Positions 35,866 to 43,272 of a DNA stretch of 64,000 nt are shown in pieces (within the stretch, counting starts at the first letter, position 1; the number at the start of each line of letters is the position of its first letter). The notes under the pieces are model-generated. The model was not told the DNA's origin. It was given only the letters and a program-made list of their open reading frames with translations, and searched no databases. The stretch is from a virus, in IMG/VR virus record IMGVR_UViG_3300010316_000005, positions 1 through 64,000 of that record; one strand, written 5' to 3'. A program made the position numbers and the translations under genes.

Positions 35866-36234
35866 ATGACTAATATATTTAAAGATTCAAAGGACTTCAT
35901 GGTGGCCATTGATCAGCACGAACCTAACCAAGCACAATTTGACTTGTATGTTAAACTAATCGACGAAGAACATAGCGAACTACATGACGCAATTGAAGCA
36001 GATGATCGGGTGGAGCAGCTCGACGCTCTTGTTGACATCTTAGTTGTAACTGCCGGAGCAATCAACTCAATGGGTGCAGATGGCGAAGGCGCGTGGAACG
36101 AAGTGATGCGCACTAACTTTGCTAAGGTCGATCCAGAAACAGGCAAGGTTCGCAGACGCGAGGACGGAAAAGTTTTGAAAGGGCCTAATTGGGTTCCGCC
36201 TAATTTAGAGCCTTTCTTGTCTAAATTAAAGTAA
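35866..36234 (+). CDS. MazG/PRA-PH-like NTP pyrophosphohydrolase (probably with a replaced C-terminus)
   Basis: LIDEEHSEL..DALVDILVV..EVMRTNFAK..REDGKVLK. Confidence 0.85.
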   Translation: MTNIFKDSKDFMVAIDQHEPNQAQFDLYVKLIDEEHSELHDAIEADDRVEQLDALVDILVVTAGAINSMGADGEGAWNEVMRTNFAKVDPETGKVRRREDGKVLKGPNWVPPNLEPFLSKLK

Positions 36235-36886
36235 ATCTGTTTTTATACAATTTGTTAGGATTATACCTAACAGCCCAAAATAGTCCGCTGCGGTTTATCC
36301 CTAGCGGACTTATTTTTTCTTCAAAATTATGTCTATTGAACATTGTCCGTTCTCCAGTGTGCATGTCTAGTAGTACATAATCTTTAACAGGAATTGGTCG
36401 AATTTCGTTTCGACGCTTAACTCCTTCTGAAATCTTTTTAGAAACTTTTTTAGAGGTAGTATTACCGTAATTCCAGTGGCTTTTTCCAGTCATGCGATCT
36501 ATGTGTTGAGCCACTCTTTCTTTGTCATCTTTCCAGCCGTGTCCTTTCTTTGCTTTAGAAATGTTTGCCTTTGTTTCTTTTGACATTACCCAGCCAGCAT
36601 TGCCATCGCCGCCGTCTGTTTTATTATGTAATATGCCAGTACCGTTGTCTATGCGCCCATGCCATCTTATTAGGCGCCGTTCTAATGCTAACGCGCCTAC
36701 ATCTGTTAGATTAGATTCTAAGATGAAAATATTCGAAAAGTCTTTTTTTGGAAATATAGTTCTGTCTGATCTAGCCCATGCTCGTTTACCACATCCTTTA
36801 CCTATGTAATAAGGTGTTCCGTTATCTCTTATGTAAGCATAGACGTAAAAATCTTTAGGCAAGTTGTTTTTAGAGTAAATATTCAT
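36221..36886 (-). CDS. GIY-YIG homing endonuclease
   Basis: FYVYAYIRDNGTPYYIGKG..R, LHNKTDGGDG, SKETKANIS; tail-to-tail overlap. Confidence 0.8.
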   Translation of the reverse strand: MNIYSKNNLPKDFYVYAYIRDNGTPYYIGKGCGKRAWARSDRTIFPKKDFSNIFILESNLTDVGALALERRLIRWHGRIDNGTGILHNKTDGGDGNAGWVMSKETKANISKAKKGHGWKDDKERVAQHIDRMTGKSHWNYGNTTSKKVSKKISEGVKRRNEIRPIPVKDYVLLDMHTGERTMFNRHNFEEKISPLGINRSGLFWAVRYNPNKLYKNRFTLI

Positions 36887-36963
36887 GCTGATAGTTCCTT
36901 TTAAAATTCAACTGTTAGAGTAGTCAGGTACGCCAATACCGTGGACTACACTTATATTTATAC
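36887..36963 (-). ncRNA. putative structured cis-regulatory leader RNA of HEG (copy 2)
   Basis: TATAAATA then GTAGTC..GGTA-TTGGCG-TACC..GACTAC; homologous to 6166-6247. Confidence 0.6.
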
Positions 36964-36980
36964 AAAAGATATAAAAGAAC

Positions 36981-37043
36981 AGGGAAGATGTTCTTAAACC
37001 CGCAGACTGGAAAGCACCTGAACTAGCACCTTTCCTAAAATAA
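36981..37043 (+). pseudogene. relic 3' end of the MazG-like gene
   Basis: REDVLKPADWKAPELAPFLK* vs current REDGKVLKGPNWVPPNLEPFLSKLK*. Confidence 0.85.
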
Positions 37044-40186: not shown

Positions 40187-40495
40187 ATGAAACGAGTATG
40201 GATGAAGTTTTTACAGAAGGCCGGAGCAAGTTTATGGAAGACATTTTTACCTGTATTAGGAACGTTATTTGTAGTAGCAATATATCTTGGATTGGCGGTT
40301 GGGATTTCTTTTAGCTTACAGTTTGTTTTCCCCGGAGGACCAATTGGCTTTTTTCTATTAATTAGTTTGGCGCTACCTATGATAACCGGAATGGCAATAT
40401 ACAACGGGCGCAAGTTATATGCCGAGGCGAAAAAAGAAGTCGAGCGTGAAAATAAAAGAATGATGGCTAGTATAAAAGGCGATACTTATGATTAG
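40187..40495 (+). CDS. 2-TM membrane protein, paralog of 39552
   Basis: MKRVW..EVERENKRMMASIKGD. Confidence 0.7.
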   Translation: MKRVWMKFLQKAGASLWKTFLPVLGTLFVVAIYLGLAVGISFSLQFVFPGGPIGFFLLISLALPMITGMAIYNGRKLYAEAKKEVERENKRMMASIKGDTYD

Positions 40496-40970
40496 AGCTA
40501 TACTCGCGTGTGACGATAATTGGGGGATCGGGAAGAACAATGATCTTCCTTGGCCGCACAATCCTGCTGACTTAAAATGGTTTAAAGAATCAACTGATGG
40601 CGGAGTTGTGGTTATGGGCAGGAACACTTGGGATAGCTTGCCTAAGCAGCCGTTGCCCAACAGACGCAATGTTATATTGTCATCGTCGATAGGCAAAATA
40701 CGATCACCATTTATAGAAGTTATTAAACCCGACATCTTTGGCTCTAGAATAAATGTACTCGAGCAGGAAGATGCACCAGTTTGGTTTATTGGCGGAGCAC
40801 ATCTTATTAATAGTTATCTTAGAATCATAGATGAAATCTGGCTCAGTCGAATTGCTGGCAACTATAACTGTGATGTTTTTCTGCCCCGTACGGCAATTGA
40901 GCTTGCCTACGAGTTACAGAGTAGCGAAAGCAATAACGGAGTTCATATAGAAAAATGGGTAAAAGTATAA
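40488..40970 (+). CDS. folA: dihydrofolate reductase
   Basis: IGKNNDLPW..DLKWFK..VVMGRNTWDSL..PLPNR..IGG. Confidence 0.95.
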   Translation: MIRAILACDDNWGIGKNNDLPWPHNPADLKWFKESTDGGVVVMGRNTWDSLPKQPLPNRRNVILSSSIGKIRSPFIEVIKPDIFGSRINVLEQEDAPVWFIGGAHLINSYLRIIDEIWLSRIAGNYNCDVFLPRTAIELAYELQSSESNNGVHIEKWVKV

Positions 40971-40983
40971 AAAAAGGAATAAA

Positions 40984-41850
40984 ATGAAAGAATATTTAGA
41001 CGCACTAGAATTTATATTAACTAACGGTAAAGACCGTGGCGACAGAACAGGAACCGGTACACGCGGAGTATTTGGATATCAAATGCGTTTCAACTTGCGT
41101 AAAGAATTCCCAGCAGTAACTACAAAGAAGCTAGCGTGGAAGTCAGTAGTCGGAGAGCTACTTTGGATGTTAGAAGGCAGCTCAGACGAGCGCAGGCTTG
41201 CAGAGATTACATTCGAAAAGCCACGTGAAGAATTAATCGGCAAGAATACCATTTGGACTGCTAATGCCGACAAGCAAGCCAAGGACCTTGGTTATGTTAA
41301 TACCGACACCGAAAAAGATCTTGGTCCTGTTTACGGACATCAATGGCGTAGTTGGGATGCACAACTTGGCTTTGTAGATCAAATTGCAGAAGTACTGGAT
41401 CAAATGTATTACGATCCGAACAGTCGCAGACATATTGTTAGTGCGTGGAACCCTGATAAAGTGGGCGTAATGGCATTGCCGCCTTGTCATGCAATGTTTC
41501 AATTTCACATACAAGACGGTGAACTAAGTTGTCAACTGTATCAAAGGTCAGTTGATGCACCACTTGGTTTGCCATTTAATATTGCTAGTTACAGTTTGTT
41601 AACACATATGTTTGCCCAATTACTCGGGTTAAAGGTTGGTGAATTTATCCATACCTCTGGCGATTTACACATCTATCAGAATCAAATAGAAAGAGTAAAA
41701 GAACAGCTTACAAGAGAACCTCTTCCAGGGCCGACGTTAGAAATGCCTAAATTTTCAAATTTAGACGAGTTAATAAAAACAACACCGAGTCAATATAAGT
41801 TGATAAATTATCAACATCACCCTGAAATTAAGATACCGTTTGCTGTATAG
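40984..41850 (+). CDS. thyA: thymidylate synthase
   Basis: DRTGTGT, LGPVYG.QW, LPPCH, YQRSVD..LGLPFN, GDLHIY. Confidence 0.97.
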   Translation: MKEYLDALEFILTNGKDRGDRTGTGTRGVFGYQMRFNLRKEFPAVTTKKLAWKSVVGELLWMLEGSSDERRLAEITFEKPREELIGKNTIWTANADKQAKDLGYVNTDTEKDLGPVYGHQWRSWDAQLGFVDQIAEVLDQMYYDPNSRRHIVSAWNPDKVGVMALPPCHAMFQFHIQDGELSCQLYQRSVDAPLGLPFNIASYSLLTHMFAQLLGLKVGEFIHTSGDLHIYQNQIERVKEQLTREPLPGPTLEMPKFSNLDELIKTTPSQYKLINYQHHPEIKIPFAV

Positions 41851-41856
41851 TTTTTC

Positions 41857-41895
41857 TTGCTGTTCCTTTCAATAAGATAAAGAAAGGAACAGCAA
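41857..41895 (+). promoter_or_regulatory. RBS-sequestering hairpin of HEG
   Basis: Perfect 14-bp IR TTGCTGTTCCTTTC / GAAAGGAACAGCAA covering the SD and the A of ATG. Confidence 0.8.
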
Positions 41896-42704
41896 TGCAA
41901 GGAATATATTATATAGAAAATACTAAAACTCAGCGTAGATATTATGGGAGTTCATTTGATATAGTAAAAAGACTAACGCAACACCGACAAGACTTAGAAA
42001 AAGGAAAACATCATAATATACAACTACAAAGAACTTATAACAAGCATGGAAACATATTTCGTTATGTAACGTTAAAAGAGACTAATTTTAATACTCGAGA
42101 AGAACTATTAGAATATGAACAGACATTTTTAGATAAAAACATCAATGGCTATAACATGGCACCCGCAAACGGCGGCAATATCCTAGGGGCACATCCAAAT
42201 AAAGATCAAATTAGAGAAAAAATTATAAAAACTCATAGTGACACTTTGAAAAGTATGAGCATTGAAGAAAAAAAGAAAAAATTTGGTCGTCCTAAAACTA
42301 AAAATGGAAACTGGAAACAAGGAGCAACTGTTAACATTTGTCCTAACTGCAATAGTTCAATGGGGTATTATGCAAAAACTTGCGGAGAATGCAGAGACAG
42401 AACAAAAGATAATAATCCGTTTTATAGAAAGTCGCACACTGATAAAACTAAATCTATTTTAAGAGAAAAACTGTCAGGCGAAAATTCGTGGATTAAAAAC
42501 ATTGATCCTAGTGAATTGCCTTATACAAAACAATATGTAATAGAATATCCCACCGGATTCTTAAAAGAAGTATATGGCCTAAAAACTATAGCAGAAGAAT
42601 TTAATACAAGTATAGCAAATTTACACGCAACAATAAATCGTATGAGACAAGGAAAAATTCCAACAAGGGGAACTTTTAAAGGAATGAATATCTATGAAAA
42701 ATAA
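41895..42704 (+). CDS. GIY-YIG homing endonuclease (Zn finger, NUMOD3)
   Basis: GIYYI..YYGSS..R..H, GYN, CPNC..CGEC, NPFYRKSHT. Confidence 0.88.
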   Translation: MQGIYYIENTKTQRRYYGSSFDIVKRLTQHRQDLEKGKHHNIQLQRTYNKHGNIFRYVTLKETNFNTREELLEYEQTFLDKNINGYNMAPANGGNILGAHPNKDQIREKIIKTHSDTLKSMSIEEKKKKFGRPKTKNGNWKQGATVNICPNCNSSMGYYAKTCGECRDRTKDNNPFYRKSHTDKTKSILREKLSGENSWIKNIDPSELPYTKQYVIEYPTGFLKEVYGLKTIAEEFNTSIANLHATINRMRQGKIPTRGTFKGMNIYEK

Positions 42705-42756
42705 ATTAATTGGGTATATCCCAATGGATAGCATAAAGGCGCCAATGGCAGTATGA
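42694..42756 (+). pseudogene. relic 3' end of thyA
   Basis: KLIGYIPMDSIKAPMAV* vs current KLINYQHHPEIKIPFAV*; TGA overlaps ATG 42753. Confidence 0.85.
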
Positions 42757-42998
42757 CCGAGGTAGTAACAAACATCGACTATGTTGAGAAATTTGCTTAC
42801 TTGCCTACGCAGGTCTCTAGTGGCGAAAGGGTGTGGTGGGATTATTATTGGATAAAAATAGTATCCTACGATCCTTCTTTAAAAATTGCGATTGATCAGG
42901 GATACGATTACTACTTAGCTAGTAAGCACATACGACTTTCATCTCGAGATAAAGAAAAAGATGAAATGTGGAGAGCAATAACCGATGATGGGAGTTAA
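42753..42998 (+). CDS. hypothetical protein, paralog of next ORF
   Basis: KFAYLPT..SGERVWW..Y. Confidence 0.65.
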   Translation: MTEVVTNIDYVEKFAYLPTQVSSGERVWWDYYWIKIVSYDPSLKIAIDQGYDYYLASKHIRLSSRDKEKDEMWRAITDDGS

Positions 42999-42999
42999 C

Positions 43000-43272
43000 A
43001 TGGGATATCGACCAGTAAGGGCGCATACAACAACGCGCAAGTTTGCCTGGAGACCAATAAGAACTGGTTCGGGAAAATGGGTATTTTGGAAACACTATTA
43101 CCGACAATCAGAATTATCAGACGGGTCAGGTACAGAATACCGAAGCTATCGATATATAAATATTACCGAAAATGAATATTTGATTTATCAAATACAAAAT
43201 TCAGAACGACCAAGGACCCCACCTGTAGATTTTTTCTTTAAATCAAGAAGAGGTCCTCGGCCTGGTTATTGA
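43000..43272 (+). CDS. hypothetical protein
   Basis: KFAWRPI..SGKWVFW..Y; GGAG RBS supports ATG 43000. Confidence 0.6.
   Translation: MGYRPVRAHTTTRKFAWRPIRTGSGKWVFWKHYYRQSELSDGSGTEYRSYRYINITENEYLIYQIQNSERPRTPPVDFFFKSRRGPRPGY

Follow-up and report, generated by a model that had tools for sequence, protein, structure and literature searches.

In the stretch of viral DNA analysed here (the window: 64 kb, positions 1 to 64,000 of the 175.7-kb virus record IMGVR_UViG_3300010316_000005), the thymidylate synthase gene thyA is followed by the gene of a free-standing GIY-YIG homing endonuclease and by a short open reading frame (ORF) that encodes a second, stranded thyA end. The features of this locus, all on the plus strand, are as follows:

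40488-40970, +: dihydrofolate reductase gene, located 5' of thyA
40984-41850, +: thyA, 288 amino acids, ending in KLINYQHHPEIKIPFAV before the stop codon, C-terminus HHPEIKIPFAV
40984..41544, +: resident (native) 5' two thirds of thyA, gene nucleotides (nt) 1-561, up to the Tyr-Gln codons
41545..41568, +: converted stretch from the I-TevI cut-site homolog (Gln/Arg) to the td intron-site homolog (Gly/Leu), delimited by codon alignment and MaxChi
41569..41850, +: cassette-borne replacement of the last third of thyA ('spare exon 2') with its stop codon, in frame with the resident part
41857..41895, +: 14-bp hairpin over the Shine-Dalgarno sequence of the endonuclease gene, reaching its ATG, from folding against shuffled sequences
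41895..42704, +: gene of the free-standing GIY-YIG homing endonuclease, an I-TevI homolog of 269 amino acids, apparently intact, from Pfam and PDB matches
42694..42756, +: relic mini-ORF of 20 codons, reading MKNKLIGYIPMDSIKAPMAV before the stop codon, with its ATG within the last codons of the endonuclease gene
42753..42998, +: downstream gene of 81 codons ('KFAW/YxP' family), whose ATG overlaps the TGA of the relic

The thyA product matches the Pfam thymidylate synthase family over its full length (E = 3.9e-97), and profile positions 1-266 of 266 are covered without any contribution of the relic. The spacer between thyA and the endonuclease gene comprises 44 nt. Within the relic ORF the stranded native end starts at about 42703, reads KLIGYIPMDSIKAPMAV up to the stop codon and closes with ...PMDSIKAPMAV, which amounts to 17 native codons. 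The coordinates and peptides of thyA, the endonuclease gene and the orphan ORF given in the initial annotation were all present in the sequence, correct in every detail. We regard it as highly probable that this thyA is a chimera made by a nuclease cassette at the intron site known from T4 td. The fuller explanation, to which we assign a probability of about 0.8, is that a homing-endonuclease cassette consisting of a spare thyA end, a hairpin and an I-TevI-like gene entered at the homolog of the td intron site, and that the displaced native end is eroding.

That a module had replaced roughly the last third of thyA, with the cut site in it, was proposed in the initial annotation, and comparison with related viral loci bears this out by MaxChi analysis, codon alignment, discordant trees of the two gene parts, and a pair of occupied and empty sites described below. 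Because thyA has 288 codons in all near relatives, the genes could be compared codon by codon without gaps. The first 561 nt of the window gene are 72-78% identical in nucleotides to all relatives, with nuclease-linked genes no closer than the rest. Over the last 303 nt, identity is 83-85% to two of the nuclease-linked genes (L001 and L004) and 62-66% to the nuclease-free genes, with 58-68% recorded for the replaced third from 41569 on; compared with the cassette end of L092, another nuclease-linked gene, it is 88-95% in places. MaxChi analysis of 14 triplets located the breakpoint at gene nt 536-565 (window positions 41519-41548) in 13 of them, the exception being the triplet with L011 (nt 360-366), and for every triplet none of 500 permutations gave a value as high as that observed. 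The absence of any breakpoint within thyA, which would have contradicted the proposal, is thus not what the data indicate. In the codon alignment the change begins at the Arg codon of YQRS, where the cassette version reads RS(V/A)DAPLGL and the native version RSADMFLGV.

The split phylogeny suggested in the initial annotation gave trees that disagree. The window gene, L001 and L004 are dispersed among endonuclease-free lineages in the 5' tree, with L004 being sister to L012 (support 99, 86% identity), and they form a single clade in the 3' tree (support 98), where L004 and L012 are just 60% identical. Sisterhood of L004 and L012 in the 3' part is rejected by the approximately unbiased (AU) test (p = 0.007), the sole decisive result of this test. 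The differences among cassette copies are mainly at third codon positions (e.g., 8/3/40 over the three positions), hence the spare end is under selection as coding sequence, a working gene end that has long been in circulation.

The identity of the orphan end was assessed in 80 related viral loci, in which the native or cassette class was set by the two residues that follow Asp in the YQRSxD motif. The native DMFLGV signature is found at 68 of these loci, nearly all of which end in ...SIKAPMAV, in agreement with the earlier assignment of IKAPMAV as a typical ThyA ending and contrary to the opposite possibility that relatives would end in IKIPFAV. The HHPEIK(I/M)PFAV ending is confined to the window and L001-L004, and so is the presence of the same GIY-YIG gene or its remnant behind thyA (5 of the 80 loci being either occupied or with remnants). 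The 54 nt of the orphan are identical to the native ends at 40-45 positions and to the cassette-type ends, including that of its own gene, at 25-26 positions. In most of the near endonuclease-free relatives the thyA stop codon overlaps the start of a small downstream gene of the same 'KFAWxP' family in an ATGA or TAATG arrangement, and the target stretch of native-type genes, e.g., L097 or L013, has the codons YQRSADMFLGVPFNI. Based on the match to native ends and the restriction of HHPEIK(I/M)PFAV endings to loci with the nuclease or its remnant, the orphan is the original thyA end of this phage rather than a fortuitous resemblance, and the end in current use arrived with the nuclease gene.

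The occupied and empty states of the site are represented by two loci from one metagenome (JGI 3300075147). L092 contains thyA, the nuclease gene, a 99-codon 'thymidylate synthase' fragment and a 97-codon gene, followed by phoH on the opposite strand; L097 has the same neighbors and an empty site, with thyA leading directly into the 97-codon gene. The L092 relic starts with LPFNI at gene nt 586, which is the homolog of the td insertion site, and shares 87-97% identity with the thyA 3' third of L097, compared with 57-73% for the cassette end of L092 itself. From this pair the mobile element measures about 1.15 kb and consists of the spare last third of thyA with its stop codon, the hairpin spacer and the nuclease gene, inserted at the td intron position, and the 24 nt between the cut-site and insertion-site homologs were converted together with it.

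Searching a large protein collection with the last 103 residues yielded many more cassette-type genes, and we compared 42 cassette-type with 49 native-type protein clusters. Between the two classes the N-terminal parts have a median identity of 79% (up to 95%) and the C-terminal parts a median of 65% (never above 73%); among cassette-type clusters the N-terminal parts go down to 56% and the C-terminal parts have a median of 84%. The module resides on at least 4-5 distinct N-terminal backgrounds, and the junction is always YQRS/VDAP. The contigs represent stages of gain, decay and loss: i) a long relic with the whole displaced end in L092, a fresh-looking insertion; ii) a 20-codon relic in the window, L099, L095 and L100, and also L004, in a contig ending 9 nt past the nuclease stop codon; iii) a further eroded relic in L001 (15 codons) and L093 (8 codons); iv) an internal deletion of the nuclease gene in L001-L003, where ~550 nt between two ACAAGTATRG repeats were lost (microhomology); and v) loss of the nuclease with the cassette thyA end retained, in L102 (where the 5' hairpin arm remains), L101 and the P0018 context. 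What is left at L001:4917-5195, and likewise in L002 and L003, is the hairpin, the first ~155 nt and the last ~90 nt of the nuclease gene, and the 15-codon relic. The contigs of L004 and L094 end before a whole relic.

Another stranded native end was observed at L071:4001-5051. This remoter phage thyA (65% identical) ends in ...YPTIKIPFAV and has DLPLGI at the target stretch, and a 37-codon ORF that ends in DFILESYDPIDSIKAPMAV is located 65 nt past it, with no nuclease gene between the two.

The nuclease is a homolog of I-TevI in both the catalytic and the DNA-binding domain. Its product matches the Pfam GIY-YIG family PF01541, and residues 2-92 align with the I-TevI catalytic domain (PDB 1mk0/1ln0, E = 4e-17) with GIY, YYG, KR, QH, E (in EYE) and N (in NGYN) in register, so that the Tyr, Tyr, Arg, His, Glu and Asn residues of the active site are all present. 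Residues 129-203 align with the I-TevI DNA-binding domain, i.e., the zinc finger and the helix that follows it (1i3j, E = 1.3e-8); this alignment includes CPNC...CGEC and identifies the four-Cys zinc-finger linker, for which the Pfam I-TevI_ZnF match is below the cut-off. The C-terminal ~65 residues do not align to I-TevI. T4 I-TevI is ~38-39% identical over residues 2-196, and the strongest E-values among isolated phages belong to copies of I-TevI. Orthologs with 75-86% identity stand behind thyA in L004, L092, L093, L095, L099 and L100, and two remoter clades (56-61% identical) are located 3' of thyA in L084 and L098. Used as a query against viral contigs, the nuclease protein retrieved just three loci, and a hairpin-pattern search recovered the same contigs; megablast against isolated phages produced no match, and distant blastn detected the conserved thyA core only.

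At L085:2743-3315 a different nuclease gene follows a native-type thyA that ends in IKAPMAI. Its N-terminus is of the HNH type (HHIVPKHMGG...), and over the last 103 residues it shares 62% identity with the DNA-binding end of the GIY-YIG nuclease of the window, which looks like a swap of catalytic domains on one DNA-binding module at the same locus.

When T4 td is rebuilt without its intron, the intron falls between the Gly and Leu codons of FLG/LPFNI, and the homologous position in the window is 41568/41569 (gene nt 585/586). I-TevI reportedly cuts 23 and 25 nt upstream of the intron site, in the Gln-Arg codons. We take the corresponding position in the window to be approximately 41543-41546 (gene nt 561/563), which places the left edge of the foreign DNA on the cut-site homolog. 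Intron nucleases are known to cut within 25 bp of the insertion site (PMC2988022). The target stretch itself differs between the classes: Pro at the second residue after Asp (DAPLG, DLPLG or DFPLG versus native DMFLG) is present in all seven genes associated with a nuclease, remnant or relic and in none of the 68 MF genes, and this proline recurs in other cassette families that end in ...PF(A/S)(V/T), at least three families (AP, LP and FP) in total. Because insertion leaves the target uninterrupted, a donor allele needs sequence changes to escape its own nuclease, and the 24 nt that encode RSVDAPLG in place of the native RSADMFLG at 41545..41568 are the candidate immunity determinant. We consider both the cut site and this determinant, as proposed from sequence comparison, to be probable.

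Nuclease-free thyA alleles of proteins P0041, P0042, P0044, P0047, P0052 and P0056 and of loci L096 and L097 have DAFLGL at this stretch, with Ala and Leu cassette-like and Phe native-like, and some of these alleles also have the cassette-like EFIHTSGDLHIY. L096 is slightly closer to the cassette in one stretch (73-89% versus 60-78%). The DAFLGL alleles could have arisen through short conversions long ago or as escape alleles.

The expression of the nuclease gene is apparently under structural control. The spacer hairpin (14 bp, -21 kcal/mol, z = -5.0 versus shuffled sequences) covers the Shine-Dalgarno sequence and reaches the ATG; its stem is identical in L001 and L004 and has compensatory changes in L092, L094 and L098. 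The loop of most relatives includes (G/A)ATAAATA, a motif similar to T4-type late promoters that is degenerate in the window. The spacer at 41848-41880, like those of L004, L092, L093, L094, L095 and L098, opens with TTTTCTTG followed by TTCCTTT-AATA, a start loosely similar to the td-type target, which in T4 reads TTTTCTTGGGTCTACCGTTTAATA. An operator of this sort overlies the late promoter of I-TevI and serves in its autorepression. The hairpin represents the same kind of control as published for I-TevI, segB and mobE, where folding of early read-through transcripts masks the ribosome-binding site, whereas late transcripts begin inside the structure (PMC2988022).

The initial annotation also proposed that the orphan end acts as a translational coupler. 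Comparison of seven genomes with relic ORFs, L092 (99 codons), the window, L099, L095 and L100 (20 codons each), L001 (15 codons) and L093 (8 codons), lends support to this idea, which is still conjectural. In all seven the relic ORF starts at an ATG derived from the Tyr-Glu codons of the nuclease end (TATGAAA), about 10 nt past AAGGA, and continues in frame to the native thyA stop codon; in six of them (the window, L001, L092, L093, L095 and L099) this stop codon overlaps the ATG of the next gene. The junctions and deletions can be attributed to about five events, namely the L092 junction, the 'MKN/K' junction, the deletion of 15 nt from L001, and two deletions in L093 of 24 and 12 nt, and all of them are multiples of three; the chance of all being in frame is ~0.004 to 0.04, depending on the number counted as independent. 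In L093, from which the native AAGG has been deleted, an 8-codon ORF bridges the strong AAGGGAG site and the ATGA overlap. No relic is present in L084 and L098, whose nuclease genes are followed by a terminator and a convergent gene; with no co-directional gene behind the nuclease, these loci need no coupling. On this comparative pattern we lean slightly towards the relic relaying ribosomes to the next gene.

Taken as a mechanism, the proposed cassette would work as follows. The nuclease would bind native thyA around the DMFLGV/PFNI codons and, in the manner of I-TevI, cut ~23-25 nt upstream, in the Gln-Arg codons. Repair would then start copying the donor at the cut and proceed across both the spare gene end and the nuclease gene, with the stranded native end and the next gene providing the right-hand homology. 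With the downstream gene part supplied by the cassette itself, thyA stays whole without splicing. The donor allele would be immune by virtue of the copied 24 nt, with RSVDAPLG having Pro for Phe and thus differing from the target. The resident end, displaced behind the nuclease gene, would subsequently erode, from 99 codons in L092 to the 17 native codons in the window, and the leftover would be kept as a short ORF from the ATG in the nuclease end to the ATG of the next gene, probably passing ribosomes on. On a broader view, it is an even question whether the I-TevI lineage has a second, intron-free lifestyle at the same spot of thyA, in which a cut-resistant spare 'exon' takes the place of the ribozyme and the old exon becomes a relay ORF.

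Among the other explanations, the one closest to the cassette model is that the nuclease is directed at the place where its gene is inserted, namely the 3' end of thyA or the junction of thyA with the next gene, instead of the active-site codons, and that the foreign third is a long co-conversion tract. Free-standing T4 nucleases convert hundreds of flanking bases (PMC2988022), the left boundary adjoins the highly conserved PPCH...CQLYQ codons, and five genomes have a common junction at the Lys codon of YKLI. This explanation is unlikely, given that the long relic of L092 begins exactly at the td intron-site homolog, far from the 3' end, that the homology to I-TevI, which targets this stretch of td, extends through the zinc-finger linker, and that the proline next to the site is tied to the nuclease in each of the cassette families named above. 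A location of the nuclease within a self-splicing intron, with the relic as the true last exon of thyA, has precedents in T4 td and Bacillus thyA, where group I introns located at this site or close to it carry I-TevI or I-BmoI. We rejected this scenario as very improbable: no Rfam intron family matched in 40900-43100 with a threshold as lenient as E = 1; coding DNA and the 39-nt hairpin occupy the whole insert, so that a ribozyme core would not fit; thyA does not need the relic to be complete, and its spare end evolves as a protein-coding sequence under purifying selection; and relics that range in length from 8 to 99 codons cannot represent one and the same exon. The presence of two thyA ends within 900 bases might also reflect a local tandem duplication of the gene's own end or an assembly chimera. 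Both were discarded as the least probable of the explanations, because the two ends are identical at just 25 of 54 nt, the L092 relic resembles the sibling genome rather than its own gene, and the identical layout was found on independent JGI and ENA contigs.

With regard to the stranded end alone, it is quite possible that it is a neutral scar, that the next gene initiates by itself, and that the in-frame relics result from shared ancestry and chance. A single event may explain the junction of the window, L004, L095, L099 and L100; the AAGG within the native IKAPMAV codons could be the ribosome-binding site of the next gene; in L100, where the next gene begins 60 nt further along and has a site of its own, the relic is nonetheless intact; and L084 and L098 do without a relic. 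Against this stand the low chance of about five distinct events all being multiples of three, the bridging ORF of L093, where AAGG is missing, and the terminator and convergent gene that follow the nuclease in both relic-free loci.

Several results weigh against the cassette explanation or limit it. A single clade of the window, L001 and L004 in the 5' part was not rejected by the AU test (p = 0.138), nor was a placement of the cassette 3' parts with the native clade (p = 0.567); since these tests are not decisive, we claim no donor lineage for the spare end. The shift to AT-richness from about the YQRSVD codons, noted earlier by eye, has the right direction, with GC content falling from 0.433 before the Gln-Arg codons to 0.356 after them, but the accompanying decrease at third codon positions (GC3 of 0.358 versus 0.277) is not significant by itself (Fisher p = 0.19). 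The left boundary adjoins the most conserved DNA of thyA, and crossovers between genes of ~75% identity would cluster there regardless of any cut. The target and cut positions are deduced from I-TevI homology and recombination boundaries. The short conversion tracts of the P0041 type (P0041, P0044 and P0056) are not clearly cassette-derived by their nucleotides and were not counted as evidence. As for coupling, the 'MKN/K' junction common to five genomes may be one inherited event, which would reduce the number of independent in-frame events, and the relic of L100 is intact though its stop codon has no overlap with the next gene.

The cassette can be compared with several known systems. I-TevI of T4 td and I-BmoI of Bacillus mojavensis thyA share with it the GIY-YIG catalytic domain, the zinc-finger linker and the host gene, and the likeness to td/I-TevI extends to the insertion point FLG/LPFNI, the left boundary at the I-TevI cut and the hairpin that hides the ribosome-binding site. 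In contrast to both, there is no intron here: a carried copy, rather than splicing, preserves the integrity of the gene, and the target is not split, so that immunity must come from sequence changes (RSVDAPLG). I-BmoI itself relies on nucleotide differences in the intron-containing allele (PMC3664794). The architecture as such is already known from fungal mitochondria, where mobile ORFs (mORFs) with a foreign C-terminus have been described in atp6 of Allomyces macrogynus and in atp6, atp9, cox2 and nad3 of Glomus (PMC3630166), along with C-terminal duplications of atp6 and cob (PMC6279837). As in the fungal mORFs, a resident 5' part is joined in frame to a foreign 3' part, followed by an endonuclease ORF and a displaced native 3' part, and in both the window and L092 the displaced part is closer to nuclease-free relatives than to the inserted part. 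Unlike the mORFs, the present element resides in a phage genome, has an I-TevI homolog as a separate ORF past the stop codon with its own translational control, leaves a displaced end that is trimmed to a putatively coupled mini-ORF, and is inserted at a known intron site.

Intronless homing by SegF and SegG (PMC2988022) would be similar in that a free-standing GIY-YIG nuclease is presumed to cut at a distance, here ~350 nt from its own gene, with co-conversion of the intervening DNA; the converted tract 41545-41850 spans the interval from the presumed cut to the nuclease gene. The flanks of T-even phages are near-identical and no duplicate arises, whereas here a diverged gene end was converted and the old one remains. 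In Aeromonas phage Aeh1, mobE splits nrdA, and F-CphI homes collaboratively with the cyanophage psbA intron (PMC2988022, PMC6083498). These are likewise free-standing nucleases living in or beside an essential, conserved phage gene, with the difference that the Aeh1 gene exists as two working pieces and F-CphI depends on a neighboring intron, whereas the gene described here is in one piece by means of the carried duplicate. In the open-access literature we found no phage nuclease that carries a gene end and no free-standing I-TevI homolog at the td site.

These observations bear on the long-standing questions of how homing endonucleases join introns and how essential conserved genes are invaded without killing the host. 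An I-TevI relative at the textbook td intron site without an intron provides a natural comparison of two strategies on one target and, if the broader view of a second, intron-free lifestyle is correct, intron-borne and exon-carrying homing would be interchangeable solutions for one nuclease family at one target. The metagenomic contigs cover every stage from the empty site to the lost nuclease, and the predictions regarding the cut allele, the cut position and the immunity bases are clear and cheap to test. Because the phage thyA genes of this group are mosaics, thyA phylogenies and calls of a 'thymidylate synthase fragment' such as that in L092 will mislead if the mosaic structure is overlooked. 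The relay ORF, if real, would be a case of a host operon adapting to a selfish insertion.

Some additional insertions were observed in and around this gene group. The phoH gene beside thyA at L102:2809-4467 (minus strand) has 592 codons compared with the usual ~240 and a faint LAGLIDADG_3 match, and may contain an intein or an in-frame endonuclease insertion. The cassette-type thymidylate synthase P0032 (479 amino acids, on a 2.2-kb contig) is enlarged in its N-terminal half, where an insert of ~190 residues separates the QWR region from the DQI helix. Elsewhere in the window, a MazG-like gene at 35866-36234 ends in ...RREDGKVLKGPNWVPPNLEPFLSKLK and is followed by an endonuclease-like gene of 221 codons on the minus strand (36221-36886), behind which an orphan frame at ~36975-37043 reads NREDVLKPADWKAPELAPFLK up to the stop codon. 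By translation this frame is a diverged MazG end, a second stranded gene end within 35866-37043.

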